Part shown: positions 5,550 to 30,234 of the stretch, one piece after another
Position numbering within the stretch: the first letter of the stretch is position 1
Layout: every line of letters starts with the position of its first letter
NCBI GenBank assembly: GCA_964423165.1
Contig: CAYRDP010000007.1
Coordinates: 283 to 64,282 of the forward strand
Length of the DNA: 64,000 bases
Origin: an uncultured Bacteriovoracaceae bacterium
GTDB lineage: Bacteria; Bdellovibrionota; Bacteriovoracia; Bacteriovoracales; Bacteriovoracaceae
Direction of reading: 5' to 3'
Notes under the pieces: model-generated
What the model was told of the DNA's origin: nothing
The model's input: the letters and a program-made list of their open reading frames with translations, nothing else
The model's database searches: none
Made by a program: the position numbers and the translations under genes

Positions 5550-5741
5550 CCCCCTAAGTTTATGGATAACATTTTTAAATCATTGAAAGAATTCTCAAGC
5601 AGTTAGCATCAAGGTTAGCGGCTTCATCACTCCCGACATGTCACGAAGTGACACTCGTTGGCTAGGTTTGGCTTTATTTTGGCTAAGTGATTTTTTTAGC
5701 AACAATCTCTTGGCCTACATAGTGTAGTCAACCATTTAACC

Positions 5742-6149
5742 ATGTTTCATTGTCCAAAGAGCATCTTTACACTTTTAAAGGAGGCTGTTTTGGAAAAAAC
5801 AAAAAAACGTAAAAGAAGAAGTGATTCTAAGGTGATTACGAAGGAAGCACAGGTATTAAGGTTTATGAGAAAGTCTAAAAACCTATCAATGAGAAGTGCA
5901 GCACTTATCATTAATAAGTCAGATACTTTAATTTCTCATACTGAACATGGAAGAATTGATCTTCATAGCAAATTGATAGAAAGGCTTGTAACAGCTTATG
6001 GCTATACAATGGAAGACTTTAGTTTGTTTATGGTTTCAGATGAGACTCTATTTGTTGATTACAAGGAAGATTTGATTAACTTTATTCACAAAATGGATGA
6101 TGCACAAATCATGAAGGCCTTTAATCTTCTCAAAGCAATGATTAAGTAA
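5742..6149 (+). CDS. Putative XRE-type helix-turn-helix regulator
   Basis: LRFMRKSKNLSMRSAALIINKSDTLISHTEHGR fits the XRE/Cro HTH pattern. The N-terminus is basic. Confidence 0.45.
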   Translation: MFHCPKSIFTLLKEAVLEKTKKRKRRSDSKVITKEAQVLRFMRKSKNLSMRSAALIINKSDTLISHTEHGRIDLHSKLIERLVTAYGYTMEDFSLFMVSDETLFVDYKEDLINFIHKMDDAQIMKAFNLLKAMIK

Positions 6150-6172
6150 TTTAAAAACAAGGATAGTTAACA

Positions 6173-6535
6173 ATGAAAAAACAAAATGAAACAAATAAAA
6201 ACAAAAATACTAACTTTTCTTCTTTAAGAGTGAAAAAGGGAACTAAGGACAATGCCTTAAAAATCCTAGAGACAATCAACAAAAAGGACTTAGGCCGTAA
6301 AGTGTCTATAGATGATCTTGTCACAAAAGCTTTAGAGAATGTGACAAAAGAGGATATTGAATTGTTACAAAGGAAATCTCTACGAAATAAAGATCGTCAG
6401 GCGATAGTTCATCAATTTTACTGCAAAAAGGTGAAAAAAGTCTCTGAAGATGAGTTTATTGGAATCACCATGTTATCTGATTATTTCGACTTCTTAGAGA
6501 AAAACAAAGCAGACCTCCAGAATTTGGGGATTTAA
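6173..6535 (+). CDS. Hypothetical protein; stop codon lies in the first bases of the IS66 inverted repeat
   Basis: ORF track. No family recognised. TAA at 6533-6535 overlaps the IS terminal repeat. Confidence 0.4.
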   Translation: MKKQNETNKNKNTNFSSLRVKKGTKDNALKILETINKKDLGRKVSIDDLVTKALENVTKEDIELLQRKSLRNKDRQAIVHQFYCKKVKKVSEDEFIGITMLSDYFDFLEKNKADLQNLGI

Positions 6536-6580
6536 GCGTGTGCTTCCGATAAGCTGGCCTAAAAAAGAAAGAAGGATAGG

Positions 6581-8167
6581 TTATCCTGGAAGATTGGCTT
6601 CGTAATTCCAGGGCAACCACTGTTCTGGAGAAGCTTTCACCCAGCTCGCATTTTCGTGAAGCGCCAGTAGGTATCGCTGAGGGTTTTTCCCCGCGCTTTT
6701 GCAGGTCTCGATTAAGCTCATCATCACGTCTCCCACCAGAGCACCAAACTGTGTCTTGTAGAAATAGGAGTTTTTACGGTTCAAAATGGGGGTCTTTAAC
6801 AAGCGTTCCACAATGTTATTACAGAGGGGAACTCCCGGAATTCTCAAGAAGAGGGTTAGCTCCTTGAAGTGCTTAAAGAAGTATTTTAGCGCATCTCCAA
6901 GTTCCTCGTTGGGTTCTATCTTTTTTAGATAGAGATTTTTCAACCCCCAACGTCTAAGCTTATCTATTACTGGACCTGACTTCTTTTGGTGGTATCGAAG
7001 CCTTTCCTCTGGGGATAGACCGCGCTCATCAGCTATTGCATCGTAATGGTAAATCTTCCTAAAGAGAGAAAGAACATATCCAACCATCTTAGGGTACTCC
7101 TTTCGGTAATCATAAAAATACCTCCTAGCGTGAGTCATGCAATTTGCCCACAGAACTGCCACCTTTTTTGGGAGGTTCCAAGAGAGGGCATCGCTCATGA
7201 TAACCGCCTTTGTCTCCCTAGCACGGCATTGAAGAATTTTATCCAGATTTTCTCCTGCATAATGATTTCCGGTAAAAAAGAGGTTGAATATTCGTTTACC
7301 CGCCTTGCTGACTATGCCCGTTGTATAGATTCCTGTTCGCTTTGCTTTCTCCTCCCTCAGCTGGTGCTGGAGTTCCAGTATTTTATTCCCAGTATCGTCA
7401 CCATGAAGGATGTCCCCATCTGCTGCTAGAGAAATGCATCTCTCAAAAACTGGGTATACTGACTCAAGCAGCACCTCACAGCGGTCCCATTGAGTACTCG
7501 CTGGTATCGGGATTCCTAAACCATTTTGCCATTTGCCAGTTCGATAAAAAGGAAGTCCTAATGCGTATTTTTGAGTGGCAATCGCTACATCGGCTGATGG
7601 ATGGTATTTACGGCGATACTCCGGTGGGAGATAGGCCTCAAAGTAATGGCCACAGGCATTGCATCGCAGTTTCTCTGTCTCGTGAACTGTGGCCTGTATT
7701 GGCGATTCCCCCGTAAATTGAATATGGGTCCCCGGTGCCACTGGATACAACTTTCCAATAGAACACTCTGGACACTTATCGCCTTTATTAACTCCTTCTA
7801 GTTTGTGACTGAGCCTCTTCGCTCCTGGCAGATCCTTCTCGCCATTGCGCCCCTGTCCCAGGTTTTTACCGCCCTTTCCTTTTCCGTGGCGATTACCGCT
7901 CTCCGCTGGCGGCCTGGGGTCCTCGTCATCACTATTCTTATCCTTGGGTGACTTTTCGGTCTTGAAGCTAAAGAGGCGTCTCAGCTTATTCAAGGATAAT
8001 TTCTTAGCGCGGTACATTTGAGCAAGCCAATAGTAGGTATCTAGGATTGTTAGGACTATCTTCTTCTCTGAGTCATTGAGGTTTGTATCTTTAATTTTGG
8101 TCTTTAGCTGCTCAAGTTCTTGATCACTGACGCTGATGACATCTGGTTTTTTGTCTTGTTTTTTCAC
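6581..8167 (-). CDS. tnpC: IS66 family transposase TnpC
   Basis: 528 aa with a Cys-rich zinc-finger-like CPECSIGKL...CNACGH segment, then a long DDE-type region typical of IS66 TnpC. It lies downstream of tnpA/tnpB. Confidence 0.85.
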   Translation of the reverse strand: MKKQDKKPDVISVSDQELEQLKTKIKDTNLNDSEKKIVLTILDTYYWLAQMYRAKKLSLNKLRRLFSFKTEKSPKDKNSDDEDPRPPAESGNRHGKGKGGKNLGQGRNGEKDLPGAKRLSHKLEGVNKGDKCPECSIGKLYPVAPGTHIQFTGESPIQATVHETEKLRCNACGHYFEAYLPPEYRRKYHPSADVAIATQKYALGLPFYRTGKWQNGLGIPIPASTQWDRCEVLLESVYPVFERCISLAADGDILHGDDTGNKILELQHQLREEKAKRTGIYTTGIVSKAGKRIFNLFFTGNHYAGENLDKILQCRARETKAVIMSDALSWNLPKKVAVLWANCMTHARRYFYDYRKEYPKMVGYVLSLFRKIYHYDAIADERGLSPEERLRYHQKKSGPVIDKLRRWGLKNLYLKKIEPNEELGDALKYFFKHFKELTLFLRIPGVPLCNNIVERLLKTPILNRKNSYFYKTQFGALVGDVMMSLIETCKSAGKNPQRYLLALHENASWVKASPEQWLPWNYEANLPG

Positions 8168-8219
8168 AAGACCAATAATGCCATCATTGGCATCTATGGC
8201 CTAGACCGACAGCAATATA

Positions 8220-8564
8220 TTAGTAGAGTTTTTTCCAGTCTTCGCTAAAGGTGACGTCGGTGGCGGCATTGATAATGAGTTGAAGTTTGCGGTAGTCGAG
8301 ATCTGTACCGGCCCCGACTCCCTCTGGCCACCAGGGGAACTTCCCCTTAGAAAGCCTCTTCATCATTAACCAGAACCCCTGGCCATCATAGACGAGGATT
8401 TTTATCGAGGCCTTGCGCTTATTCCGAAAAATGAAAAATATCCCCGAGTCAGGGTTCTTTTTTAGCAGTTCTCGACATATACGCTTTAGGCCAAGAATCC
8501 CATTTCGAAAGTCAACTGGCTCGATAGCAACAAAGACTTTGGATTGAGAGTTTAGAAGGATCAC
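8220..8564 (-). CDS. tnpB: IS66 Orf2-like accessory protein TnpB
   Basis: VFVAIEPVDFRNGILGLKRICRELL...ILVYDGQGFWLMMKRLSKGKFPWWP is the conserved IS66 Orf2 signature. A 4-nt ATGA overlap joins it to the upstream orf1. Confidence 0.85.
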   Translation of the reverse strand: MILLNSQSKVFVAIEPVDFRNGILGLKRICRELLKKNPDSGIFFIFRNKRKASIKILVYDGQGFWLMMKRLSKGKFPWWPEGVGAGTDLDYRKLQLIINAATDVTFSEDWKKLY

Positions 8565-8881
8565 AGGTCAATACTCAGGGTTATATTGTTGGGGAGTTGC
8601 AATATAATCTGCTTTTTGCTGAAGGCCATCTCTGGCACTTGAATGACAGAAATAGATTTACTTGTCTTTTTCCCCTCCTTGGGTGCCTTCTTTTGGGAAT
8701 TCTTCATTCTGCGAATAAGGTTACCCTTATTTATACTGAGTTCGGAGGCAATGGTCTCAGGAGATAGCTCTCGCGAGAGAGAGACTGCCTTCTCCCAAAA
8801 CTCCTTTGGGTACTTTTTTGTTCGCGGGTGCCTGGCCCTATGGTCAGCGAGAATTTTCTTGAGTGAGGTAAGTTCGTCCAT
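8561..8881 (-). CDS. tnpA: IS66 Orf1-like protein TnpA (HTH)
   Basis: Its position and size are typical for IS66 orf1, and ELSINKGNLIRRMK is an HTH-like segment. Confidence 0.7.
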   Translation of the reverse strand: MDELTSLKKILADHRARHPRTKKYPKEFWEKAVSLSRELSPETIASELSINKGNLIRRMKNSQKKAPKEGKKTSKSISVIQVPEMAFSKKQIILQLPNNITLSIDL

Positions 8882-9080
8882 AGATACTCCATTTTGGACG
8901 AGGATACCAGCTGGGATTAGGGATGGTTAAGCTTGCTTATCGAAAGGACACATTTAAGCTATAAAATGTCACTTTTCTGGGTGAAAATGTAAAAAGAGGA
9001 AGTTCACGGATGAATAAAATAAAAAAGCTAGTAGGGCTTTTCCTCTTTCTTTGTAATTCCCTCAAATATTTTCAAAGTTA

Positions 9081-9413
9081 TTACCATAAAAGCCGAATTA
9101 ATTTGAGTAATTTTTTTAATTCTTTAATATCTAAATTTTTTAAAAGTAAATCTATTTGTTTTATTAAACGTTCATTTGTTTGTTTACTAGATTTACTTTC
9201 AAATAAAAATAGCTCACTTGGAGAAATATCTAGCGCTTGGCTAACAGATATAATGAATTCAAATGATGGGCCTCTTCGTCCTGATTCAACGTAGGAAAGA
9301 TGTTGTGACGTTATTGCCATTAATTCACTTAGCTCCTCTTGCGTTAATCCAACCTCTTTTCTTAAATGTCTTACTCTTCTGCCAAACTCCGACTTATAGT
9401 TGATTTTTTTCAT
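9081..9413 (-). CDS. XRE family transcriptional regulator
   Basis: GRRVRHLRKEVGLTQEELSELMAITSQHLSYVESGRRGPSFEFIISVSQAL is a classic XRE HTH. Confidence 0.8.
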   Translation of the reverse strand: MKKINYKSEFGRRVRHLRKEVGLTQEELSELMAITSQHLSYVESGRRGPSFEFIISVSQALDISPSELFLFESKSSKQTNERLIKQIDLLLKNLDIKELKKLLKLIRLLW

Positions 9414-9598
9414 GTAACCCTCTGTTTTAATTATTAAGGGCTTGAAATATAAAGTTAATCGACTAAAAGATTGGTATACTGTAACTTTAAGTATATGTTT
9501 TCGAGGAGGAAAATTAAGGAATCTACTCTTAAATTAATGTGAGAATACATAAAAGGACAGCTAAAGTTTTGAAAAAATTAGCCGATATATCCTATTGA

Positions 9599-9625
9599 GT
9601 AATTGTAATTGTAATTGTAATTGTA
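9599..9625. repeat. Hexanucleotide microsatellite (gtaatt)x4.5 in the promoter/5' region of the DGR target gene
   Basis: Read directly: gtaattgtaattgtaattgtaattgta. It ends 33 nt before the ATG at 9658. An aggagga RBS lies at 9644-9650. Confidence 0.85.
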
Positions 9626-9657
9626 TTTACTTTCAATTTGGATAGGAGGATTAAGCA

Positions 9658-11085
9658 ATGAACAACAAAGCAAGTATATTAGGTGGATTCCTTTTACTTG
9701 GAAGCTTATTATCGGGCTGTTCGAGTACGAGTGATTCAACGCGTTTGCCAGCAAGTACAATGGATGCAGGAATTATTGGCCCGAAAGGGGAAGTCATTCT
9801 TTTCTACAAAAAAAATAGCAAAATTATTGTTAAGCAATGCGAGGACTACACAGTTTTAAAATCAAGAAGTGACTGTAAAGTTAAGCCAGGAACGGTTGTT
9901 CAAAATGTTTCGGTTAGTGACTTTAAAAACTCTCTTAAAATGGCATTGAAGCTTCCTGGTGGAAACTATGATGCTGAAACGAAAAGAAAAATTGAACTTT
10001 ACAACAATGGCCAAAGAGATGATGTTGAAGAGCTTTCAAGGCGACAAAGAGAGCTAAAAGCTCAGATCGCAAAAATTGAAGCATTTATTGAAGAATATAG
10101 TGCTCAGGATGCAGATACTGGACACCTATCAAGCTTGATAGATAGTTTGTCTCAAGTGGAAGGTGATCTAGGGGATTATGCTCAACTTGGTCAGATTATT
10201 AAAGAGATTAATGAAAAAATTGACAACCTAGTTGATAATATTATTTCAAGCGATACCCTTTACAAATATACTTTCTCAAAGCAAAAAACAGGCTTTGTTT
10301 TTAACATTCTTAGAGCTTATTTAAGAGCACCAATGATTTCCGCTTCTTTCCAGAGAATTGCAAGAGGAAGCTTCACTATGGGAAGCCCTTCTAGTGAAAG
10401 TAATCGCGGTAGCGATGAAGGACAAAAAGAAGTCACGATTTCTAAGTCTTTTGACATCATGACTACGGAAGTAACTCAAATGCAATGGTTTTTAGTCATG
10501 GGGACAAACCCATCACGATTTAAAAAGCCAGAGCATTGTGACAACCACATTAATATTAACGGTGAAGGGTTATGCCCCAGTAATCCAGTAGAGCGAGTTT
10601 CTTGGAATGATGTTCAAACCTATATCAAGAAACTAAATGACTCTCTTGGGTTAAGTGGTTGTAATGGAACTCCAAGTGATTCAAAAGGATGCTATCGCCT
10701 TCCAACGGAAGCTGAGTGGGAATTTGCTGCTAGAGGAAAAGCAACAACAGCTTATTCTTTTGGAAATAGCTCATCAAGTTTAGGAAGTTATGCTTGGTAC
10801 AGCAGCAACTCAGATAGCAAAACTCATTCAGTAGGTTTAAAAAGGGCAAACCCTTACGGACTCTATGATGTTCATGGAAACGTATGGGAATGGGTACAGG
10901 ATAATTACAAGAATGGATTAACAGGTGGAACTAACCCGCTGCATACATCCTCCGGGTCTCTCCGCGTTATTCGTGGCGGCAGTTGGGGCAGCTACGCGCG
11001 GTACTTGCGCTCCGCGAATCGCTTCTTCGACATCCCGGACTACAGGTTCACCGGTGTCGGTTTCCGCCTTGTGAGGACACTGTAA
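9658..11085 (+). CDS. DGR variable (target) protein: lipoprotein with coiled-coil region and C-terminal FGE-sulfatase/C-type-lectin-fold domain
   Basis: MNNKASILGGFLLLGSLLSGC is a lipobox. FGE-sulfatase motifs are present: GSFTMGSP, VSWNDVQTYIKKLN, YRLPTEAEWEFAARG, GLYDVHGNVWEWV and RGGSW. The last 45 codons are the VR. Confidence 0.9.
   Translation: MNNKASILGGFLLLGSLLSGCSSTSDSTRLPASTMDAGIIGPKGEVILFYKKNSKIIVKQCEDYTVLKSRSDCKVKPGTVVQNVSVSDFKNSLKMALKLPGGNYDAETKRKIELYNNGQRDDVEELSRRQRELKAQIAKIEAFIEEYSAQDADTGHLSSLIDSLSQVEGDLGDYAQLGQIIKEINEKIDNLVDNIISSDTLYKYTFSKQKTGFVFNILRAYLRAPMISASFQRIARGSFTMGSPSSESNRGSDEGQKEVTISKSFDIMTTEVTQMQWFLVMGTNPSRFKKPEHCDNHININGEGLCPSNPVERVSWNDVQTYIKKLNDSLGLSGCNGTPSDSKGCYRLPTEAEWEFAARGKATTAYSFGNSSSSLGSYAWYSSNSDSKTHSVGLKRANPYGLYDVHGNVWEWVQDNYKNGLTGGTNPLHTSSGSLRVIRGGSWGSYARYLRSANRFFDIPDYRFTGVGFRLVRTL
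10950..11075 (+). repeat. DGR variable repeat (VR)
   Basis: It aligns without gaps to 13051-13176 (offset 2101). All 93 non-A template positions are identical. 19 of 33 template adenines are substituted here. Confidence 0.9.
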
Positions 11086-11121
11086 TACTTTAGGGCTTTT
11101 ACACTTTTACCCTTTAAGATA

Positions 11122-11175
11122 GCCCTTAGAGCAGTGATGCGAAGCACACTTGCTCTAAGGGCGTTTTTTATTTTT
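11122..11175 (+). terminator. Intrinsic terminator-like hairpin downstream of the VR gene
   Basis: gcccttagagca (11122-11133) pairs perfectly with tgctctaagggc (11151-11162). A T-tract, ttttttattttt, follows at 11164-11175. Confidence 0.7.
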
Positions 11176-11185
11176 GAGAATAGTT

Positions 11186-11707
11186 ATGATGCAAGTCAAG
11201 ATTTTTACAATGCCATTTAACTCCCAATTGGGAGTTTTTGACGATGAAGAATTCAATAGCTTCATCAAAGATAAAGAGCTTGTGTCAGCTAATGACTACT
11301 TATTTCAGCGTGATGAGATTCCCTATCTAACTCTTGTCGTAAAATACAAACAGTTAGCTTCTGTAGTCATGTCTGCAAGTAATGGTACTAAACCTCAAGA
11401 AAAAACTAAGAATAATGAAGAGTGGAGAAAGCTCTTAGATGATGAGTCCATGCCACTATTTAATACCCTAAGACAATGGAGAAGTGAGAAAAGTAAAAAA
11501 GATGGTGTCCCTCCCTATGTCATTCTAAACAATAAGCAACTTGCGGAAGTATGCCAAAGAAGACCTCAATCCAAATTTGATCTTATGAAAGTTGAGGGTA
11601 TTGGAAAAGCAAAAGCAGAGAAATACGGAGATGAGATTTTAAAAGTAACTTCATACCCTGAAATAACTAAAGATACCAATGAACACTCAGCACAGCAATC
11701 CCCGTAA
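11186..11707 (+). CDS. HRDC-domain DGR accessory protein
   Basis: The C-terminal part, LFNTLRQWRSEKSKKDGVPPYVILNNKQLAEVCQRRPQSKFDLMKVEGIGKAKAEKYGDEIL, matches the HRDC pattern of RecQ/RNase D. The track start 11174 is TTG, so ATG at 11186 is more likely. It overlaps avd by 29 nt. Confidence 0.65.
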   Translation: MMQVKIFTMPFNSQLGVFDDEEFNSFIKDKELVSANDYLFQRDEIPYLTLVVKYKQLASVVMSASNGTKPQEKTKNNEEWRKLLDDESMPLFNTLRQWRSEKSKKDGVPPYVILNNKQLAEVCQRRPQSKFDLMKVEGIGKAKAEKYGDEILKVTSYPEITKDTNEHSAQQSP

Positions 11708-12047
11708 AAATGAGGAATTGCCAATTTTTGTAAAGTGGCTTGAGTTTTTAAAATGGTTTCTTCCGACTCTTGAAAAATTTCCTAAAAAAGCACGATTCAC
11801 CATTACAAGCAGAATTGAAAATATTGCACTTGATATTGTTGAGCTATTGATTGAAGCCAAATACTCAAGAGAGAAAAAGCCAATCCTAAGAAAGATCAAT
11901 CTCTACTTAGAAAAAATAAGAATCCTGCTGAGGATCTCACATGAAACAAAGCTAATTTCAACCAAGTCTTATAATTTTGCAAGCAAGGGGATCAATGAAG
12001 TTGGAATGATGCTTGGTGGTTGGCTTAGGCAGCAGGAAAGGCGATGA
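11679..12047 (+). CDS. avd: DGR accessory variability determinant (Avd, four-helix-bundle protein)
   Basis: 122 aa. LPIFVKWLEFLKWFLPTLEKFPKKARFTITSRIENIALDIVELLIEA...MLGGWLRQ matches the Avd / 23S-rRNA-IVS four-helix-bundle family pattern. It sits immediately 5' of the RT with an ATGA overlap. Confidence 0.8.
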   Translation: MNTQHSNPRKNEELPIFVKWLEFLKWFLPTLEKFPKKARFTITSRIENIALDIVELLIEAKYSREKKPILRKINLYLEKIRILLRISHETKLISTKSYNFASKGINEVGMMLGGWLRQQERR

Positions 12048-13042
12048 AAAGATATGGAAACCTTTTCAATAAAATTACTGAAATTGAAAACCTCTATTTG
12101 GCGGCAAAGAAGTCGTTTAAAGGGAAGAAATTTAAATATACCGCTGCCCCTTTTTATTTCAATCTTGAAAACGAGCTTCTGAAAATTCAAAGAAAACTAA
12201 ACGATGAAAGCTATCATCCTTCTTCTTATAAAATCTTTAAAATCTATGAACCAAAAGAGAGAAGAATTTGCTGTGCAGAATTTCACGATAGAGTTGTTCA
12301 TCATGCAATTGTTAATATTTTAGAACCAATTTTTGAAAGAAGGCTTATCTTTGATACTTATGCTTGCAGAGAGGGGAAAGGAACTCATGTCGCTTTGAAA
12401 AAAGCGCAGGATTTAGTAAGGAAATATAAATATTATTTAAAATGTGACATAAGAAAATATTTTGAATCTATTGACCATAATGCTTTAAAAGTATTGATAA
12501 GGAAGATATTTAAAGACAATAAACTGATAAGGCTTCTTGATAAAATTATTTCTCATCAACCACCCTATACTGCTCACGGGAAAGGTCTTCCCATTGGAAA
12601 CCTAACGAGTCAGCATCTTGCCAATATTTACTTGGGGGAACTTGATCTTTTTATCAAGCACGATCTCAGGTGTGTCGGATATGTTCGATATATGGATGAC
12701 TTTATTTTATTCTCCGATGACAAAAAAGAGCTGAGAATCTTTCTTGAAAAAATAAGAGACTTTCTTTCCGTGAACTTAAAGCTGGAGCTTAAAGAAAAAA
12801 TAGTCAAAATTGCACCAGTAAGTGAAGGGTTGCCTTTTTTTGGATATAGAATATTTCCTGGTTTGATTCGACTACAAAGGGCCAATCTTGTCCGATTCAG
12901 AAGAAAGGTAATGAGACTTGAAAAGAAATACAAAAAAGGAAAAATTAAGGAGGAAGATTTAATTAATTCTGTGAGAAGCGTGGTGGCTCATATTTCTCAT
13001 GGGAACACAAAAAATTTAAGAAATTCAGTATTTTTTAGGTGA
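12044..13042 (+). CDS. DGR-type reverse transcriptase
   Basis: The N-terminus is MKRYGNLF. It carries IGNLTSQHLANIYL (the DGR RT signature with SQ) and a YMDD catalytic box (VRYMDDFILF). At 332 aa it has no maturase or endonuclease extensions. Confidence 0.9.
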   Translation: MKRYGNLFNKITEIENLYLAAKKSFKGKKFKYTAAPFYFNLENELLKIQRKLNDESYHPSSYKIFKIYEPKERRICCAEFHDRVVHHAIVNILEPIFERRLIFDTYACREGKGTHVALKKAQDLVRKYKYYLKCDIRKYFESIDHNALKVLIRKIFKDNKLIRLLDKIISHQPPYTAHGKGLPIGNLTSQHLANIYLGELDLFIKHDLRCVGYVRYMDDFILFSDDKKELRIFLEKIRDFLSVNLKLELKEKIVKIAPVSEGLPFFGYRIFPGLIRLQRANLVRFRRKVMRLEKKYKKGKIKEEDLINSVRSVVAHISHGNTKNLRNSVFFR

Positions 13043-13050
13043 GTGGTCAA

Positions 13051-13176
13051 CTCCGGGTCTAACCGCGTTATTCGTGGCGGCAGTTGGAACAACAACGCGC
13101 AGAACTTGCGCTCCGCGAATCGCAACAACGACAACCCGGACAACAGGAACAACAATGTCGGTTTCCGCCTTGTGAG
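13051..13176 (+). repeat. DGR template repeat (TR), non-coding
   Basis: It starts 8 nt after the RT stop. It has 11 AAC codons plus one AAT in the VR frame (NRVIRGGSWNNNAQNLRSANRNNDNPDNRNNNVGFRLV). It is GC-rich relative to its surroundings. Homology to VR ends after gtgag. Confidence 0.9.
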
Positions 13177-13315
13177 TACAAGTTATTGCCAGATAAATGG
13201 AGTTCAAGGATTTCATTTCCGCGCATCAGGTTTGTCCAGACCACTGACCTGTGCCAGATTTTTTTGGACGAATAAAATTAGTGCCATAGCTTTGAGTAGT
13301 GATAAGCGAAAATTG

Positions 13316-13630
13316 TTATGGCACTTTTTTAATAGGTCTATAGAGAGTAGAAGATATAGTTTCTACGGAAAAGCATTTGAATTTAGAATCACATTTAACA
13401 AGCTTACCCGTTATCTTTTTGAAGGTTTGCTCTTTCATCATATTCTGTTGTTTTTTGGAAATATCAAGAAGTTTAAGCTGTGCTTTACGAAGTTCTTTGT
13501 TCTTTATTTTTCCATCTTGTGCAGATAAAAACCAATGACCTTTTTTCTTATAAATTGTTCCTATCGCCGTATCAACCTCACTAGCTTGGACTGAAAAGTT
13601 GATTACCAAGAAAGCAATGATAATTTTCAT
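13316..13630 (-). CDS. Small secreted hypothetical protein
   Basis: Signal peptide MKIIIAFLVINFSVQASE. A 4-nt overlap joins it to the upstream peptidase gene. Confidence 0.5.
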   Translation of the reverse strand: MKIIIAFLVINFSVQASEVDTAIGTIYKKKGHWFLSAQDGKIKNKELRKAQLKLLDISKKQQNMMKEQTFKKITGKLVKCDSKFKCFSVETISSTLYRPIKKVP

Positions 13631-14913: not shown

Positions 14914-15031
14914 ATAAATTAAAAAATAATCGCTAAAAATCGTAAAAAGATGATTGTGACTAGCTAGGTAACTGAGGTAATAGGTCTTCTATTGAGAGTG
15001 TCATATATTCAAACAGTAGCAGATTTGATTT

Positions 15032-15346
15032 TTATCGTTCAAGCAACTTTAATGGATTAGTAATTCCAAACCCATCGCTCAAGTCAACAATTGTTTGAAG
15101 CCTCGGATTTGTCATCTTTCCTTGGTTAATTTCTTGAATTGTTCCAATGGAGAGTTTAGCTTTATCAGCTAGTTCTTGCATAGTCCAATTTCTTTCTTTT
15201 AAAAGCTTTTGCACGTTTAGCTGCAAGCGCTTCGCAAGTTGCTTAGTTTTACGGTGTTCAATCTGATCTACGGTGATTCTAGTCACAAGCTTAGTTCTCC
15301 AAATTATATATTTGATAATCACGGATTTATCCGCTATAGTCATCAC
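15032..15346 (-). CDS. XRE family transcriptional regulator
   Basis: LKERNWTMQELADKAKLSIGTIQEINQGKMTNPRLQTIVDLSDGFG is an XRE HTH. Confidence 0.75.
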   Translation of the reverse strand: MMTIADKSVIIKYIIWRTKLVTRITVDQIEHRKTKQLAKRLQLNVQKLLKERNWTMQELADKAKLSIGTIQEINQGKMTNPRLQTIVDLSDGFGITNPLKLLER

Positions 15347-15366
15347 TGATATATCCGTGATTCACT

Positions 15367-15767: not shown

Positions 15768-15951
15768 TGTCGGGAATTCGTCACTGTAGCAATTTGCTTG
15801 AAATCAATAAGTTAACCTTAGTTTTACCATTGAACTCTATCTTGTTGTCGGAGTACCGACACAATAAAAAAATCAGTCTAATCAAATAATATTGAACTGT
15901 TAGATATACTTACTTGCTTGCTTATCTTTTATTGTGACGGATTCCCGACAC
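15768..15951. promoter_or_regulatory. Three TGTCGG(G)/CCCGACA sites: outer inverted pair plus central perfect palindrome
   Basis: tgtcgggaattcgtcac (15768-15784) and gtgacggattcccgacac (15934-15951) are reverse complements except for one base. tgtcggagtaccgaca (15846-15861) is a perfect 6-N4-6 palindrome. All three are intergenic, 75-280 nt upstream of the sigma54-like promoter. Confidence 0.5.
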
Positions 15952-16024: not shown

Positions 16025-16039
16025 TGGCACATGCTTTGT
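16025..16039 (+). promoter_or_regulatory. Sigma54-like promoter (TGGCAC-N5-TTGT), non-canonical -12
   Basis: tggcacatgctttgt was read directly. The GG/G spacing is correct, but -12 is GT rather than GC. It sits just upstream of the GGAGG RBS of the EBP gene. Confidence 0.3.
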
Positions 16040-16065: not shown

Positions 16066-17385
16066 ATGAACGAGCGTATTTTAGTCATAGACGATGAGCA
16101 TTTGGTTTTAGATGCGGTTAAAGTCGCTTTGAAGGAAACAGACATTGTTGTTGAGACTGCTAGTAGTCCAGAAGAAGGCATTAGGCTATTTCGAAAGTCT
16201 CCAAACGGCTTTCTCTCAATTCTCGTTGATAACCAGTACAAGCAAGAGAACCAAAAGGTTGAGGTTCTTGGGCCAATGGTTGTTAGAGAGATCAGGAAGC
16301 TTAATCCTCAAGTTCAGGTTGTAATGCTCTCAGGTGATTACTCGTCTGAAGCCTTGAAGAGTTGGAAAGAAGCAGGAACAGATAAGTACCTCTGGAAACC
16401 TTTCAAGAAAGAGCAGTTACATGCATATATCGAGCTGGCCAGAGAGCAGAAAAGAAAAATTGAACAGCTTTGTGAAGATACTGAAGACTTCTATGCCAAC
16501 CAAAGAGAAAAAATGGCTATGGATAAGCTTGGTGTAATTGGAGTTTCTAAGGCAATGGGAGAAGTTGCTTTAAAGGCCTTTGAACACGCTAAGAAAGATA
16601 TTGCCGTTATGCTCTTGGGTGAAACGGGAACAGGTAAAGAAGTATTTGCTAGAGGAATTCATAAGAATTCACTTCAGGCGGAGACAGAATTTATTAGTGT
16701 TGATTGTACTCGCTACAAAGACAAAACAGATTTATTTGAAAGTGAAATGTTTGGTCACGTTAAGGGAGCATTCACGGGGGCTGATAGAGACAGAACTGGT
16801 TTTGTTGAGGCTGCCGACGGTGGAACATTATTTTTAGATGAAATCCATCACTTGAATGCTGATGCTCAAGCAAAGTTACTTAGATTGATTCAGAATAGAT
16901 CAATTGTAAAAGTTGGTGAGCATAAGGAAAAGCCTGTTCAGTTTAGGCTTATCGTTGCTTCAAAACCTTCTCTGAGAAAGATGGTAGAGGAAGGAACATT
17001 CTTACCAGACTTATTTTTTAGAATCTATGAGTTGGATTTATTGATTCCAACTCTCAACGACAGAAAAGAGGATATAAAGCCTTTAATCCTGCACTTTTTA
17101 AAGAAGCATAGTTCTGAAAAAGAAGTTTCCTTTGCACAAGGAGCATATTTCGAACTTAAAAAACATGATTGGCCAGGTAATGTTCGAGAACTAGAAATGG
17201 TCATTAAGAAGTCTATTATTAATTCTAAAGACGAAAAAGTAATGGCCAAGGATTTATGTTTAATTTGGGCAAGAAAAACCAAGAGTTCCCAAGCAGTACA
17301 AATTGGAGAGCTAGTACTAGAAAGTAAGTTAATTTCTTCTAAATATGGTGATGAAAAACTTTTTTTCCAACACAATATTGAATAA
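16066..17385 (+). CDS. Sigma54-dependent response regulator (REC + AAA+ domain), apparently without C-terminal HTH
   Basis: A REC domain (ILVIDDE...LVDNQ) is followed by Walker A GETGTGKE, the GAFTGA loop (VKGAFTGADRDRTG), LFLDEIH and GNVRELE. I could not recognise a Fis-type HTH in the last 60 aa. The track start 16051 is GTG, and ATG 16066 has a GGAGG RBS. Confidence 0.85.
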   Translation: MNERILVIDDEHLVLDAVKVALKETDIVVETASSPEEGIRLFRKSPNGFLSILVDNQYKQENQKVEVLGPMVVREIRKLNPQVQVVMLSGDYSSEALKSWKEAGTDKYLWKPFKKEQLHAYIELAREQKRKIEQLCEDTEDFYANQREKMAMDKLGVIGVSKAMGEVALKAFEHAKKDIAVMLLGETGTGKEVFARGIHKNSLQAETEFISVDCTRYKDKTDLFESEMFGHVKGAFTGADRDRTGFVEAADGGTLFLDEIHHLNADAQAKLLRLIQNRSIVKVGEHKEKPVQFRLIVASKPSLRKMVEEGTFLPDLFFRIYELDLLIPTLNDRKEDIKPLILHFLKKHSSEKEVSFAQGAYFELKKHDWPGNVRELEMVIKKSIINSKDEKVMAKDLCLIWARKTKSSQAVQIGELVLESKLISSKYGDEKLFFQHNIE

Positions 17386-20298: not shown

Positions 20299-20407
20299 TA
20301 TAAAGTAACTTATCTTCTTTTTCTGTCCCTGATCTACCTACTGTTTTGCCCATTGAAAAAAAAAATATAAATTTTATAATATAAGAGACTTAACTGAAGG
20401 TTATATT

Positions 20408-20794: not shown

Positions 20795-22384
20795 ATGATG
20801 TATAAAAATATTATAGTATCTAGTCTATTTATCTTAACAACATTTAGTGTGCAAGCATACAGTACTAAGTATAATAGCAGGTGCCCAGGGAATCAAAATT
20901 ATGACTTACATGAAAACTTTGGCCCAATTCGTTCTCAAGCTCAAGCACCTTGGTGCGCTACCTTCACTGCTACTGCTTTAGTCGAACATTTTATCAAAAA
21001 AGAAACTGGAGTTTCACGTCAACTTTCTCGTACTGATGCCAATAGTATTATGTCCACTCGTCCTCTTGATAACAAGGGAATGCCTATTCGAGATATTGAT
21101 TTAGCGGAGGGATCAAATTCGCTAAATATTTTGGAAGGCATACAAAATGTTGGAGGGCTATATGATCGGTCTGAATTGCCTTTTGATTCAGCATTATTTG
21201 GACATAATAAATTATTAGAAAAATTACAGGATTATTATGCACAGACAGAAAGCAATGATTGCATTGATTGCTTAGACTTAGCAGTACAGGGAGGACCTCT
21301 TGATAGCACAAATGCTAAAAACCAGCTATCCAACATTAGAAGATTATCACATTCTTTAGATGAATTTTTAAATAAAGTGAATAAGGATTTAGGCAATCAA
21401 ATTTACCGCTTACTTCCTTTGAATTCGAATGCCACGCGTGTGCCAGTACCACCATATAATGTTAAAAGAAATTCACATGCTAATGGAGATCAATATATTG
21501 AAGGGTTAGTTAATTCATTAAAAAATGGACGTCCCCAAATAGCGAGCGTTTGTTATAATAAACTACATAGAAATATAACAGGACAGCATATTGGAAGCGA
21601 TTGCGGTGATCATGCTATGGTTATGGTTGGTTCTAGAACTCATAATGGTACATGCCAAGTTTTACTTAGAAATAGTCATGGCCGCAGTTGGCCATCTAGT
21701 TCAAATGCTGATCCTGGTGGTGGTTATCAATGGGTTAATGTAAATGATTTTTTAGGTGCTGTTAGAAAACAAGATAATAATACATCAATTACTGTCGAAA
21801 TCACCAAGAGAGCACCTCCTATTGATCAAGTCAAAAATGATATCCCCTTACTTGATGGATCTAGATATGTCGGGAGAACCTGGCAAGGAAAATTAGAAGG
21901 TTCTGGTAGTCTTTATTCACCCGATGGATCACTAGAGGGTCAAGGTAGGTTTGAAAATGGTCGTCAGGTAGATGGAGAAATTCTTATTAAGTTTCATAAT
22001 AGTACTGATACGTTTTGGGGTAATTTTTATCGTCATAATAATATGATTTATCCTCATAATAAAGGAAAAGTTTCAAATAGCCGTGGAGAGATAATTGAAG
22101 AAGGAGAATATTCTCAAGGTCGATTTATCAACGGCACTTCAGACAGGTTAAAATTTACAAATGGTCAAAGTTATAAAGGACATGTTCGAAACTCTGTTCC
22201 TAATGGTCAAGGAGAGCTTTTTAATTCAAAGGGAGAACGAATTGCAGTTGGAGTTTTCAGAGATGGTAATATTTTTACCGGCCAGTTGTTTAAATATCCT
22301 GTGACGGTACGTAGTGGAAACAAATTATTTACAGGTAATATTGAAAATAGACAGTTTGACCTTAATCATGGAGTCTTAGAATAA
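20795..22384 (+). CDS. Secreted papain-like (C1-type) cysteine peptidase with C-terminal MORN repeats
   Basis: The Gln/Cys region is RSQAQAPWCATFTATALVEH, the His is in GDHAMVMVG, and there is an Asn-Ser-(H/W) segment LLRNSHGRSW. The C-terminal YxGxxxxGxxxGxG repeats are MORN-like. Confidence 0.6.
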   Translation: MMYKNIIVSSLFILTTFSVQAYSTKYNSRCPGNQNYDLHENFGPIRSQAQAPWCATFTATALVEHFIKKETGVSRQLSRTDANSIMSTRPLDNKGMPIRDIDLAEGSNSLNILEGIQNVGGLYDRSELPFDSALFGHNKLLEKLQDYYAQTESNDCIDCLDLAVQGGPLDSTNAKNQLSNIRRLSHSLDEFLNKVNKDLGNQIYRLLPLNSNATRVPVPPYNVKRNSHANGDQYIEGLVNSLKNGRPQIASVCYNKLHRNITGQHIGSDCGDHAMVMVGSRTHNGTCQVLLRNSHGRSWPSSSNADPGGGYQWVNVNDFLGAVRKQDNNTSITVEITKRAPPIDQVKNDIPLLDGSRYVGRTWQGKLEGSGSLYSPDGSLEGQGRFENGRQVDGEILIKFHNSTDTFWGNFYRHNNMIYPHNKGKVSNSRGEIIEEGEYSQGRFINGTSDRLKFTNGQSYKGHVRNSVPNGQGELFNSKGERIAVGVFRDGNIFTGQLFKYPVTVRSGNKLFTGNIENRQFDLNHGVLE

Positions 22385-22669
22385 GCTTATTAACTCCAAA
22401 ACATCCGTTTACATCACTGGCAGGGACACATTGTCTAACCCATTTTCCTTTTAAGTAGTGAGCAACCCCATAAAACCAAGTGATTTGATCGTTAGAGCTT
22501 GGGATAATTTTATCTGGGTAATATTTGTCGAATAAATTATTAATAATAAAGTTAGGTTTTTAAAGAATATTTTGGGTTATTGATATTAAGAAGGGGTAAC
22601 TATAGTTTAAGATTATATCATTTATTATTAAAACTTTAAGTAATTGATTATATATTACGATAAGTATCT

Positions 22670-24556: not shown

Positions 24557-24614
24557 TATTCTATTAATTATTAAATAATATTTAATATATTTTATAAAAG
24601 GAAGGATTAATTAA

Positions 24615-25556: not shown

Positions 25557-25557
25557 T

Positions 25558-26028
25558 TTATAATTTTTCCACTTCTTGAGTGTCTAAGCTATTAAGCCAA
25601 TTAACTAACTGCTTCATCCCTTCTTGAATAGGTATACTATTTTCAAACCCAAGTAACTTTTTTGCTTTAACTGTTGATGCTTTTCTTCTGGTTACTTCTA
25701 CTTTTCTTCTTTCTTCAGGAACAGGTATATATTCAGGCTTGATATCTACTTTCATCGCTTTGATTAACTCAAGGCAAAGTTCCTCTAAAGAAACTTCGAT
25801 ACCACTTGCAATATTAAAAACTTCATCTTGGACATCTGAGTTCATGGCACAAATACAAGATTTGGCTACATCTAGAACATTAACAAAATCCATTGTCTGT
25901 TTGCCATCACCAAATATAAGTGGCCTTTTACCTTCTTTAATTAATTTGTACCATTTAATTAATACTTCTGTGTACTTACCATCAGTGTCCATCCTAGGCC
26001 CATAAAGATTAAAAAATCTTTCTATCAC
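25558..26028 (-). pseudogene. C-terminal fragment of an NAD-dependent sugar epimerase/dehydratase
   Basis: FNLYGPRMD...LIFGDGKQTMDFVNVLDV is the C-terminal half of SDR-type epimerases. The Rossmann N-terminal half (about 150 aa) is absent, and upstream DNA is AT-rich non-coding. Confidence 0.6.
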
Positions 26029-26257
26029 TTAAATCTTGCATTTATTATTCCCCTTATATATTTTGAATTTTCATTATAGTAATTTTTTTTATGAATAAAA
26101 ATAAGCATTTTTTTGCAACCTAATATACTATACAACCTAAAGCTTAATTTAATTATTGGTAAATAGAATTAAGGCATTAGAAATAAAAGAGAACAGATTA
26201 TATTCGATAAGAACTTAATATTTTTATTGCTGTATTAATTTATGGAATGTCTTGGTG

Positions 26258-26800
26258 TTATCTTACCATTGTGAAAATGCCAGAAAGATGGTGAGCTTTC
26301 TCTACTATATATGTGTTGATCAATCGAACGGGAACGCCGGCAACAACCTCGTTTTCATTTACATCCTTCGTTACTACTGCACCGGCACCTATAGTTGCAT
26401 TTTTTCCTATAGTGACTCCACATAAAATAATAGCACCACTGCCAATCGAAACGTTATCTTCTATTGTTGTATTAATGCAACTCCAGTCATCATCAGTTTG
26501 TTTTTTTCCATCTTGGTTTATCGCTTTTGGGAATTTGTCATTAATAAATATTACACCATATCCTATAAAGCATCCATTACCAATATTTACACCTTCACAT
26601 ATAAATGTATGTGAGCTTATTTTACATTTTTTTCCAATAGATGCCTTTTTTTGTATTTCTACAAATGTTCCAATTTGTGTTCCGTCACGAACAGAACAAC
26701 CATATAAATTATTAAATCCAAATAGTTTGACGTCTTTTCCTAGCTTTACATCATCGGAAATAAATATTGTACAAGAACGATCGTTGTCTTTTGCGCTCAT
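26258..26800 (-). CDS. Hexapeptide-repeat (left-handed beta-helix) acetyltransferase
   Basis: Repeated [LIV]-G-x4 hexapeptides: IGKKCKISSHTFICEGVNIGNGCFIGYGVIF...VSIGSGAIILCGVTIGKNATIGAGAVV. Confidence 0.75.
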   Translation of the reverse strand: MSAKDNDRSCTIFISDDVKLGKDVKLFGFNNLYGCSVRDGTQIGTFVEIQKKASIGKKCKISSHTFICEGVNIGNGCFIGYGVIFINDKFPKAINQDGKKQTDDDWSCINTTIEDNVSIGSGAIILCGVTIGKNATIGAGAVVTKDVNENEVVAGVPVRLINTYIVEKAHHLSGIFTMVR

Positions 26801-27422
26801 CTTTTTATCTGTATAAAAAGTTATAGATACAAATAATATCGATATTTTTGCGAATAATATTAGCTTTTATTAGTACTTTGAGCTTATTAGAATGGTTTAT
26901 TAAGGATTAAAATTGGCAATTTTAAAATAATATTCTACTTAAACTTCATGGTATTTGATCAGATTGTCTATAAAATCTACAGTATTAAACCTTAAGATAA
27001 CTGATTTGTGATTAGTTAACTGATGTCGTTTATTCTATCTTATTAATTGTAGTATAATTAAAGTAATAGGAGGGGCGATTTGTTACTATTATCTGCATTA
27101 TGATTGCCTGTGCGCTATTAACTATTAATTTGGTTCACAAAAGAACGCTTAATGCCATCGAGGAAAGAAGTAGTCAATCAATGGTTCACTCGCTTGAAAT
27201 ATAAGTAAGTCGTCCTGTAAGTATATATATGGAGGATTTATGTTTTAGGTAATAAGGTTTTAATCTGGTTTTTTACACTTCTATATCAAGGACCGACCTC
27301 ATCGTTAGTCCTTGTAATTAAAGAGTTTGTTATAATTAGGTAATTTTAATCTAATTTTTTTAAAAAAAAGTCCCGACATTTCAACTAAGTTATTTTAAAA
27401 CTCAAAAAAAAGGGGGGATTAC

Positions 27423-27851
27423 ATGAAATTACTTTCAGCGATGATGATATTTAGTTTTTTTTCGATAAGTTTTATTACTGGTGTCGGTGATGCAGTAGCA
27501 GGAAATAAATGGTGTAGGCTAGAATGCACTGGTAGTGGATGGGAAAAAAGAGATAATGGTGATTCTAGCCGATGCATTAAAGAAAAAACTCCAGCAAAAA
27601 GCAAGACTGTAAATGTTTTATGTAAGCCAGCTATTTATGTGAAGGGGTATAGGCTTTCACAAAAAAGTGGCAATACTAATGCTAAAAAGAAAGATTTATG
27701 CAAAAAAGGTAGCCAGACAAGGTCTGTCTCTTGCGCAGCCGTCGGCAGTGGGTGGGACTGTAAACTAAAGGCTTTGAATGGTTTGGATAATTGTGAGTGT
27801 ACAAAACCTGCAAGTTATGATTACAAAAAAGCAAAAAGAGATTGCGACTAG
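27423..27851 (+). CDS. Small secreted cysteine-rich protein
   Basis: It has a signal peptide and about 13 Cys in the roughly 115-aa mature part. An A8G6 tract (27404-27417) forms the RBS region. Confidence 0.55.
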   Translation: MKLLSAMMIFSFFSISFITGVGDAVAGNKWCRLECTGSGWEKRDNGDSSRCIKEKTPAKSKTVNVLCKPAIYVKGYRLSQKSGNTNAKKKDLCKKGSQTRSVSCAAVGSGWDCKLKALNGLDNCECTKPASYDYKKAKRDCD

Positions 27852-28200
27852 TTAAGTTTTCTTGATTCTTGCGCGCCGCCTACGTTACACTAACGAAAAC
27901 TGTTAGCGTAACGCAGGAAGGTTTGTTTATAAAGCTAAGCAAGCTATTTGGTGCAAGTGGGCCTAAGGAATTTGCCAAATATTACGCTTTGTGTATGATA
28001 AATCCGATTACGCACAAAGCGATGATTATGCTTTATGTCGACAGTGTGTGATGGCAGTGTCTTTAATAAAAATTCTATTGGCATTCTTTTGATAATTGAT
28101 TATTTGTTTCCCTCTGGCACTTAAAGAATACGTTCAAGTTTTTTCTGTTTTTCTTCTCACATTTATCCCACATGAAGTCGTTAATAATCATGAAAAACAG

Positions 28201-28452
28201 TTAAATACTGTGAACTAAGAAAGAAGGTAACAAAGAGACCACATTGGTATCTTTATTGGCATCTTTATCTGTAAATTTCTCAGGTAAATCATAGCCCAAT
28301 CGCTCAGTCTCACCTTGAAGATCTACCCCAGAAAGTCTTAAGTATTCATCAGTGGTTGCCATTTTAGAGTGGCCCACAATACTCATCACTTTCACAAGAG
28401 GCGCTCCTTGGGCCAGCATATTGGTAATAAATGTTGCCCGCAGGAGAAAGTA
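28201..28452 (-). pseudogene. Tyrosine recombinase (integrase) C-terminal remnant
   Basis: LAQGAPLVKVMSIVGHSKMATTDEYLR is the His/Tyr end of phage-type integrases. My upstream extension reads YFLLRATFITN (LR of the HxxR box) and then hits a stop at 28453-28455. About 84 of the usual 350+ codons remain. Confidence 0.7.
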
Positions 28453-28905
28453 TTATCTGGTCGATAGCAAAATCAAAAGGCGACCAATCTTTAAGGTATC
28501 CTGGAGAGGATGGAACTTATGAAGATAAGAGGATGAAGAAGCTTGGGATTTAGGCAAAAGAGCACTTTTTTGAAGATACTCTCTTCATATAATAGGTAAA
28601 ACTAAAACTCCGGTATTCTCTATTGGGCACTCTTTGTTGGAGTTACCCTTGGCCCTTTACAAAATTTGAATTTATTTTTTATTTGAAAGAAATCGGGACC
28701 GAGGATTATTATCAGGAAAAAAATAAAAAAATACCTTGAACCTGAGTGACAAGTACGTTATTCCATATTTGGAGTTCTTAAATGAAACTAATAAATCAAG
28801 TTATTGGAGTATCTTTAAAAAATGTCGCCCTACGCTTTCTGGATGTCAGTATCAAGAGAGAAAATTCAGATGATTGAAAATGATCAATTTAAATGGATTA
28901 ATTTA

Positions 28906-30006
28906 ATGCTCGTAACCAAATATTATATTGTAAATTTTTTAATTATTTCCGTATTATTGTCCTGTTCCTCTACGCAGGATCTGACATCAAGGGACCTTTC
29001 GAGTGAACGAAAAGAAAAATGGTTAGGAATTTCTTACCCTCCCTTGAGAATGAGAAAAATTCCACACCGCGATCTAACAGAACTGGAATTTTCAGAAGGG
29101 GTCATCGAGCGTCTTGACGTAAACTTGGTTACTTTTTCAGAGTACTGGGATGTACGGGAAGTGACCAAAGGCACTTTTAATTGGAAGAGCCTTGACCAGA
29201 GAATGGAATGGGTTAAAAGAAAAAAATTAGATTTACTTCTTCGAATCAATTCAACGGGCCCTAAATGGGCTTGTCAGGATTACCCTGCCCAAAACTCTCA
29301 TTCTTGTGTTTATAAAAGCGAGAGATACTTTGTAAGGTATATCGAGGCCATATTAAAACGCTATCCAAAATCAATTAAGCAAATTCAATTTGGTAACGAA
29401 TGGCAAACTCAAAAGAGATATGTGGGCACTGGGGAAGACTATTCTCGCTTTAATAACATTTTGTTTGATACTGTGAAGAGATTTGCCCCTAATATTAAAG
29501 TATCGTTGGGAGCATTTTCAATTGGATCTCTGCAGTGGCTTGCTGCCTGCTCTGGAAAAATCGAGGAATTTAGTAACGTGGAGTATTTTGGACCAGATAG
29601 GATAAAGCAACACTGTAAAAAGAAAAGATACATCAGAATGCGTGATAAAATTAAATACGTTCTGAAACACTCGAAATTTGATACCATAGATATTCACCTC
29701 TATGATGACGCTGAAAATTGGCCTATATATCATGCCCTAATTGCAAGTAGAACCTCAAAACCAATCGTAGTTAGTGAGTTTGGAGGGCCGAACTTATTTT
29801 TTGAGAATTATTCTGATGAATATCAAGCAAAACGTCTTCAAATTTATTTAGAGACACTTAAGAGTTTGGATATCCTCGAAGCATATTATTTCAAGTTGGT
29901 TGAAGCTGGACAAGCTCATCCTATGCACAAGAAATCGACTCTGTTTAATCGTAACTTTATAGAAAAGCCCGCTTTTATGACTTTTTGGAATTTCACTAAT
30001 CGCTAG
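28906..30006 (+). CDS. Lipoprotein, clan GH-A-like glycoside hydrolase candidate
   Basis: An internal ATG at 28906 gives MLVTKYYIVNFLIISVLLSC (lipobox). FGNEW and VVSEFGG are spaced like the acid/base and nucleophile Glu of (beta/alpha)8 GH-A enzymes. The track start is 28822. Confidence 0.4.
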   Translation: MLVTKYYIVNFLIISVLLSCSSTQDLTSRDLSSERKEKWLGISYPPLRMRKIPHRDLTELEFSEGVIERLDVNLVTFSEYWDVREVTKGTFNWKSLDQRMEWVKRKKLDLLLRINSTGPKWACQDYPAQNSHSCVYKSERYFVRYIEAILKRYPKSIKQIQFGNEWQTQKRYVGTGEDYSRFNNILFDTVKRFAPNIKVSLGAFSIGSLQWLAACSGKIEEFSNVEYFGPDRIKQHCKKKRYIRMRDKIKYVLKHSKFDTIDIHLYDDAENWPIYHALIASRTSKPIVVSEFGGPNLFFENYSDEYQAKRLQIYLETLKSLDILEAYYFKLVEAGQAHPMHKKSTLFNRNFIEKPAFMTFWNFTNR

Positions 30007-30220
30007 ATTATTGCAATCAATTAAAACCTTAGTGGACAGAAAGCTATTCTTTGAAATATCTACTTTCTTGAACTCAACACCTATTTTAAGGATTTGGCAT
30101 TTTAAATTAGGTCAACTCTCGTCAAGAGCATTTGTTAGCTTACGATATAATTCCCCGATCTTTTATAAGTAGTTCTGGCCAATTCTCTGTTACCAGACTT
30201 GTTACCAAAAGTTAGCAAGG

Positions 30221-30234
30221 CCCGACATGTCGGG
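30221..30234. repeat. Perfect 14-bp palindrome CCCGACATGTCGGG
   Basis: Read directly. It is a member of the CCCGACA motif family and lies 106 nt from the tRNA-Pro 3' end. Confidence 0.8.

Follow-up and report, generated by a model that had tools for sequence, protein, structure and literature searches.

A CCCGACA word in an uncultured Bacteriovoracaceae bacterium probably covers two unrelated kinds of site: sigma-54 activator sequences and att-proximal island DNA

Elements that encode a tyrosine integrase insert at the 3' ends of tRNA genes or of ssrA, and their attP/attL arms, such as the lambda P' arm sites or the arms of P4-like or CP4-57-type islands at ssrA, lie next to these ends. For GlrR (also named QseF/YfhA), three TGTC-N10-GACA sites have been described >100 bp upstream of the sigma-54 promoters of glmY and glmZ in Enterobacteriaceae (PMC3045617), and the NifA upstream activator sequence is TGT-N10-ACA, as cited in PMC6296734. 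Here, we describe the recurrent word CCCGACA/TGTCGGG in 64,000 nt of DNA from an uncultured Bacteriovoracaceae bacterium (GCA_964423165.1, contig CAYRDP010000007.1; the whole stretch is hereafter called the window). With a probability of about 0.68, this word covers two unrelated things: upstream activating sequences (UASs) of a sigma-54 activator (sites B, C and D; Table 1), and island DNA located close to att sites (sites A and G). Both components are known kinds of DNA, i.e. the enhancer of a bacterial enhancer-binding protein and the att arm of an integrative element.

Sites B, C and D resemble the GlrR system in several respects. They are associated with a response regulator exhibiting receiver, sigma-54-interaction and C-terminal helix-turn-helix (HTH) domains, the latter being present in orthologs; a -24/-12 promoter is preceded, at >100 bp, by three palindromic sites, of which the distal one shows the lowest conservation; and the sites are defined by cross-species conservation. 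However, the palindrome is TGNCGG-N4-CCGNCA here (16 bp; TGTC-N8-GACA in the window) and TGTC-N10-GACA for GlrR, and the window copy of the regulator has no HTH. The predicted targets are the operon to which the regulator itself belongs and, in relatives, a tra-like operon carried by a mobile element, whereas GlrR targets small RNA genes. As for NifA, the sites are 16-bp dyads with outer TGT/ACA, located upstream of a sigma-54 promoter, and site C (TGT-CGGAGTACCG-ACA) fits the NifA sequence literally; in contrast, conservation here concerns the inner CGG/CCG, the third position is variable and a nif context is absent.

Sites A and G, for their part, recall the att arm of a tyrosine-integrase element: the boundary coincides exactly with the end (3') of a tRNA-type gene, short repeated sequences that look like protein-binding sites are present within ~100-180 bp of the core, and an integrase remnant is nearby. 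They differ from it in that neither an intact integrase nor a core repeat at the far end was found, in that an XRE regulator and not int adjoins the arm, and in that the 12-mer carried by these sites also occurs twice outside an att-like context (sites E and F).

Occurrence of the word and its division into two site classes

CCCGACA was observed seven times in the window, versus 1.39 expected, and 0 out of 100 dinucleotide shuffles reached this count. The 8-mer TCCCGACA was observed six times, versus 0.44 expected. All six copies fell between 5.6 and 30.3 kb, and a scan of 30.4-64 kb returned zero copies. A preliminary description of this DNA had proposed that the motif is more frequent than expected by chance, which is borne out by these counts, and had noticed no copy in the intergenic regions of the housekeeping half. 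Within 5.5-30.3 kb, TCCCGACA was also the top over-represented 8-mer under an order-3 Markov model (6 versus 0.27 expected; p = 5e-7), with a p-value that is borderline once corrected for ~33,000 words.

The copies listed in the preliminary description were all present, i.e. TCCCGACA at 5631-5638, 15768-15775 (minus strand), 15943-15950 and 27371-27378, the palindromes TGTCGG-AGTA-CCGACA (15846-15861) and CCCGACATGTCGGG (30221-30234), and the partial copy TCGGGAC (28693-28699). The outer sites at 15.8-15.95 kb, presented as reverse complements of each other, agree at 17 out of 18 positions. A further copy of TCCCGACA, overlooked at that time, is located at 21868-21875 on the minus strand. The motif had been described as restricted to intergenic DNA, which is incorrect, since this copy lies inside an open reading frame (ORF) of 529 aa (20795-22384).

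Nor did the sites behave as the single motif family that had been proposed. Three of them (B, C and D, here termed class I) fit the 16-bp palindrome TGNCGG-N4-CCGNCA, four (A, E, F and G, class II) fit the 12-mer TCCCGACATNTC, and neither set matches the pattern of the other. Each pattern was enriched in its own right. The class I pattern, searched as TGTCG-N6-CGWCA, gave three matches (B, C and D) versus 0.02 expected. For TCCCGACATNTC, four exact sites and the plus-strand palindromic partner of site G (one mismatch) gave five matches versus 0.25 expected when up to one mismatch is allowed; exact chance matches were roughly estimated at ~0.01.

Class I sites upstream of a sigma-54-type regulator gene

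The class I sites were compared across eight orthologous loci from six lineages, with regulator orthologs of 97, 90, 87, 69, 66, 63 and 62% identity (comparison loci are labelled L023, L025, L026, L111, L115, etc.); a metagenome scan with the regulator alignment contributed just two true orthologous loci to this set. Exactly three matches to the palindrome were found in the 420 nt upstream of the regulator in each of the eight loci. The proximal palindrome started at -90 from TGGCAC in all eight (six lineages), the middle one fell between -178 and -190 in every orthologous locus (about 179 nt upstream in the window), and the distal one at -257 to -280, again in 8 out of 8. The promoter element itself, TGGCAC-N5-TTG(C/T/A), was conserved 40-42 nt before the ATG in all eight loci, with TTGC in L026 and L115; the window element has one mismatch to TGGCAC-N5-TTGC. 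The DNA between the palindromes was scarcely alignable, even with the 97%-identical ortholog. Because the three sites hold their position relative to the -24/-12 promoter across six lineages while the spacers diverge, B, C and D are best read as predicted UASs of the NtrC-type regulator and not as XRE operators.

Over 19 distinct class I sites, T1, G2, G5 and C12 were invariant. The third base was freely variable and was complementary to its partner (pair 3-14) in 5 of the 19 sites, approximately the level expected by chance, which points to recognition of half-sites by a protein rather than to an RNA or DNA stem. As none of the three palindromes of the 97%-identical ortholog (L111) contains CCCGACA, this heptamer appears to be incidental to class I, its first C corresponding to a non-conserved spacer base. 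The preliminary description had suggested a dimeric DNA-binding protein, and this suggestion suits palindromes B, C and D (15.77-15.95 kb). The three XRE regulators, put forward as candidate binders, do not seem to be concerned: the sites travel with the sigma-54 regulator and its promoter and were kept in L023, L111 and L025, where no XRE gene is nearby. In the window, B-D lie ~480-660 bp from an XRE start, with one gene intervening.

The regulator contains a receiver domain and a Sigma54_activat domain (E = 1e-55), is ~35-40% identical to characterized NtrC-family proteins, and has the GAFTGA motif, as do all orthologs. The C-terminal tails of the orthologs match HTH_8, a Fis-type HTH, at 23-27 bits (cut-off, 22 bits). 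From these domains and from the arrangement of the sites, we infer both the identity of the binder and its activating role. The phosphorylated regulator would bind the palindromes as dimers via its C-terminal Fis-type HTH, then oligomerize and loop to the sigma-54 RNA polymerase, opening the promoter. This promoter would drive the regulator gene and, in intact relatives, its operon (regulator, 138-aa protein, SBP_bac_5, YcaO and histidine kinase), thus resulting in autoregulation. A sigma-28 promoter (-10 CCGATAT-like) or an extracytoplasmic function (ECF) promoter was also considered and rejected; by-eye inspection, with no statistical test, revealed no common -35 element.

A second promoter/UAS-like region was observed in relatives, at 15950-16220 in L023, 11950-12175 in L031 and 18180-18380 in L026. 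In these three loci, the extra UAS-like sites and a sigma-54 promoter precede tra-like genes, encoding a TraR/DksA-type zinc finger protein, TraU and a VirB11/T2SSE-type ATPase. In view of this arrangement, the same regulator probably controls, in relatives, a transfer-like operon on an ssrA-integrated element.

The window copy of the regulator gene appeared to be damaged. Homology to the 478-aa orthologs does not extend beyond residue 399 (nt 17262), and the rest of the operon, i.e. four genes downstream (138-aa protein, SBP_bac_5, YcaO and histidine kinase), is missing; both the HTH tail and these genes appear to have been lost through a deletion at nt 17262. A truncated gene model (439-444 aa) was also present in population contigs L118, L119, L121 and L122, which cover only the gene start. 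Since the same truncated gene was called in contigs from other samples, an assembly error seems unlikely. An intact copy of the regulator, 97% identical, was found in other metagenomes. In the window, B, C and D are probably orphaned but intact enhancer sites, unless a paralog is present elsewhere.

Class II sites and the island boundaries

Read in tRNA sense, the 12-mer begins 105 nt past the tmRNA fragment at site A and 104 nt past tRNA-Pro at site G. A shared 8-mer lying within 2 nt of equal offset was obtained in 2.1% of shuffles, which extrapolates to ~1e-4 for 12 nt. Both sites are followed by direct repeats: the TTGGCT array after site A is conserved in L026 and L115, and TGGTAACA-like units are present after site G at a spacing of 12-13 nt (two copies exact, the third read by eye). 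In addition, GACAT recurs at site G with a 10-nt period. The homolog of site A in both L026 and L115 is TCCTGACATGTC, and in L026 it is located 106 nt after the intact tmRNA 3' end.

L026 and L115 have intact tmRNAs with different tag peptides, each followed by the same DNA as that observed after the tmRNA fragment of the window, where no complete tmRNA gene was found. The same arm behind two different tmRNAs points to an element integrating into the ssrA 3' end, and the fragment appears to mark the att-type junction of such an element. At the other end of the region, locus L027 (GCA_018702465.1; the adjacent AMP-binding protein is 98% identical) matches the window nearly base for base from the core genes through tRNA-Pro. 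Because all similarity ceases precisely where tRNA-Pro ends (3'), this position was taken as the boundary of the strain-specific island. The 3' end of tRNA-Pro(GGG) is an integration hot spot, at which GCA_018702465.1 carries wholly different DNA.

By inference, A and G form part of the att-proximal arm in each of two related integrative elements, located at ssrA and tRNA-Pro, respectively. They probably bind a recombination or regulatory factor encoded by the element, of the integrase-arm, recombination directionality factor or XRE type. A recombinase or excisionase had been named earlier as a candidate binder for all sites; this remains compatible with A and G, which lie ~105 nt from tRNA-type 3' ends at island junctions. 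Sites E and F carry the 12-mer without an identifiable context and are left unexplained by an att arm. The 8-mer TCCCGACA was also considered as a displaced acceptor end of tRNA-Pro, but this was rejected: no T-arm is present upstream, and tRNA-Pro ends in TCCGACCA.

The tyrosine recombinase remnant located close to site G matches XerA, XerC and XerD in the PDB (E = 0.004-0.035) and has no match in Pfam. A glycoside hydrolase gene of the cellulase family (28822-30006) sits where the 5' part of an integrase gene would be expected. This 394-aa protein, next to site G, was horizontally acquired. Its closest relatives, which include flavobacterial proteins, are ~40% identical; no syntenic relatives of it were found, hence no footprint was obtained for site G.

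Two other structures were observed near site A or in a similar layout. A palindrome, CTACA-TAG-TGTAG, is located at 5717-5729, 60 nt ahead of the XRE gene at 5790, and is conserved in L026 and L115; as a candidate operator of this XRE protein, it is more likely than site A. In L025 (12706-13290), the SBP_bac_5 gene is interrupted at residue 278 by other DNA with an XRE-like module, ahead of which are found CCGAC-N14-GTCGG and three GCCTAGAG direct repeats, in a layout resembling that of the region after site A.

Table 1. Coordinates of the sites and associated features in the window.
Feature	Position	Strand	Sequence or description
Class I site B (distal UAS)	15768..15783		TGTCGGGAATTCGTCA; starts 257 nt before TGGCAC
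Class I site C (middle UAS)	15846..15861		TGTCGGAGTACCGACA; perfect TGNCGG-N4-CCGNCA match
Class I site D (proximal UAS)	15935..15950		TGACGGATTCCCGACA; starts 90 nt before TGGCAC
Sigma-54-type -24/-12 promoter	16025..16039	+	TGGCAC-ATGCT-TTGT; 41 nt before ATG 16066
NtrC-family response regulator / sigma-54 activator	16066..17385	+	Receiver and AAA+ with GAFTGA
tmRNA 3' fragment	5497..5525	+	GCGGGTTCGATTCCCACCACCTCCACCA, then hairpin
Class II site A	5631..5642	+	TCCCGACATGTC; overlaps palindrome TGTCAC-GAA-GTGACA (5639-5653)
TTGGCT direct repeats, three copies	5658..5686	+	Spacing 10-11 nt; after A, upstream of XRE gene 5790-6149
Class II site E	21864..21875	-	TCCCGACATATC; inside ORF 20795-22384
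Class II site F	27371..27382	+	TCCCGACATTTC; ends 40 nt before ATG 27423 of a Cys-rich secreted protein
Tyrosine recombinase C-terminal remnant, 72 aa	28201..28419	-	…RATF…GHS…TT..Y
Direct repeats after G in tRNA sense	30188..30215	-	TTGCTAAC / TTGGTAAC / CTGGTAAC; parallels the TTGGCT array
Class II site G	30220..30235		Palindrome (G/T)CCCGACATGTCGGGA; minus-strand copy TCCCGACATGTC, 12-mer at 30224
tRNA-Pro(GGG)	30340..30416	-	3' end = island boundary 30339/30340

Weighing of the alternatives and other features of the mobile region

Two alternatives retain a single regulon. In one of them, the sigma-54 activator or a paralog would also read each class II site as one extended half-site (TGTCGGGA). 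Among the 19 distinct UASs, TGTCGG(G/A)A is indeed the extended half-site found most often, and every class II site contains it. However, a second half-site at N4 is missing from the class II sites, the half-sites of G are everted relative to those of the UASs, a geometry that does not suit the same dimer, and the additional conserved class II bases, AT-N-TC, are not found in the UASs; furthermore, a scan for -24/-12 elements near A, E, F and G found none. We consider this alternative unlikely. It is also improbable that all CCCGACA/TGTCGGG sites are operators of one dimeric repressor encoded by the element, most likely an XRE protein, even though three XRE genes are present in the region (5790-6149, 9081-9413 and 15035-15286), site A lies ~150 nt upstream of the one at 5790, B, C and D lie ~480 nt from the one at 15286, and TCCCGACA or CCGACA is common to all sites. 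The spacing between B-D and a sigma-54 promoter is fixed in the XRE-free loci already mentioned, the 16-bp palindrome is not matched by A, E, F and G, and the UASs of L111 do not contain CCCGACA. Moreover, the motifs vary independently between lineages, with CCGACA of the UASs replaced by CCGCCA or CCGTCA and CCCGACA of site A replaced by CCTGACA.

Two further alternatives do not involve a regulator, and we regard both as very improbable. B and D are inverted copies (17/18) separated by 167 nt, and A(+)/E(-) and F(+)/G(-) are inversely oriented, as might be observed if B and D were the terminal inverted repeats of a miniature transposable element of ~185 bp, with C inside it, or if the class II sites were ends of insertion sequences or transposons. 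Yet no target-site duplications were found flanking the sites, site E lies within an uninterrupted ORF of 529 aa, and the distances to the promoter are fixed across six lineages while the supposedly internal DNA diverges. In addition, no genome with multiple copies of the 18-mer GTGTCGGGAATYCGTCAC was found in 596 Gb of reference genomes, and no copy was found in viral contigs; in this collection, which does not include the genome of the window, single scattered matches occurred in 18 unrelated genomes, a chance level by our estimate. The palindromes could also be RNA or single-stranded DNA hairpins, which might, for instance, terminate the 119-aa gene located upstream or serve as processing signals. 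As single-stranded DNA, C and D do fold better than shuffled sequences (C, -7.1 kcal/mol, z = -3.9; D, -4.8 kcal/mol, z = -4.7), but these energies are small, site B folds no better than its shuffles, no T-tract terminator was detected, and the sole freely varying stem pair (3-14) shows about chance complementarity, as reported above.

Several observations weigh against the division into activator sites and att-proximal DNA. Concerning the activator sites, the window regulator has no HTH tail, so that the UASs cannot work with this gene copy; the -12 element of the window is TTGT and not TTGC; and no rpoN gene was noticed among those ORFs of the window that were examined. Concerning the att-proximal sites, the presence of TCCTGACATGTC in L026 and L115 indicates that the CCCGACA core is not strictly conserved, site E falls within a coding sequence, and an att-like context is lacking for both E and F. 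An intact integrase is absent from the window, and none was found within 10 kb in L026. Likewise, no second copy of the tmRNA or tRNA-Pro 3' end was found in the window with up to three mismatches, a far island end included, although short cores would escape such a search. Finally, the full 8-mer TCCCGACA is common to B, D and class II, which we tentatively attribute to chance or to spacer bases.

A more far-reaching, and doubtful, possibility is that TCCCGACATNTC is the recognition site of an element-encoded factor that defines an undescribed family of integrative (possibly conjugative) elements in Bdellovibrionota. The fixed module of this family would comprise a tRNA-type 3' end, 105 nt, the 12-mer, three direct repeats and an XRE gene. 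Its members would be located at different tRNA-type genes (ssrA, tRNA-Pro), and a sigma-54 two-component system, linked to the SBP and YcaO proteins, would activate their transfer genes.

The division into two classes illustrates that a statistically real "motif family" recognized in raw sequence can be a mixture, in which comparative footprinting separates an enhancer from att-proximal DNA. TGNCGG-N4-CCGNCA provides a testable binding consensus for an uncharacterized NtrC-type regulator of Bdellovibrionota on an ssrA-targeting mobile element. The consequences are local, and no new principle is implied.

The region from ~5.5 to 30.3 kb is a decayed mobile region. The nearest named relatives of the acyl-CoA ligase encoded in the window were metagenome-assembled genomes of Bdellovibrionales, Bacteriovoracaceae and Halobacteriovorax, and contigs near-identical to the window were found in several metagenomes. 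Viral contigs were searched with the 529-aa protein and the XRE protein, and nothing was found. Among the other genes of the mobile half, we identified an XRE gene together with a 120-aa gene, an IS66 element and a second XRE gene.

This half also contains a complete diversity-generating retroelement at 9658-13528, comprising a target gene, genes for an HRDC protein and bAvd, and a reverse transcriptase gene. The target protein exhibits an FGE-sulfatase/C-type-lectin-like C-terminus. The variable repeat (VR) is located at 10950-11079 and the template repeat (TR) at 13051-13180, with an identity of 85% between the two. The retroelement, the IS66 element (6581-8881) and the XRE gene at 9081-9413 are inserted together in the ssrA element, and the parts of it that they separate adjoin each other in L026.

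To the left of the tmRNA fragment (97-5311), large genes encoding leucine-rich-repeat lipoproteins were observed, with internal repeats of 69/72 nt. One of these genes (2084-5311) encodes a protein of 1075 aa with a lipobox signal. This part of the window is probably another accreted island.

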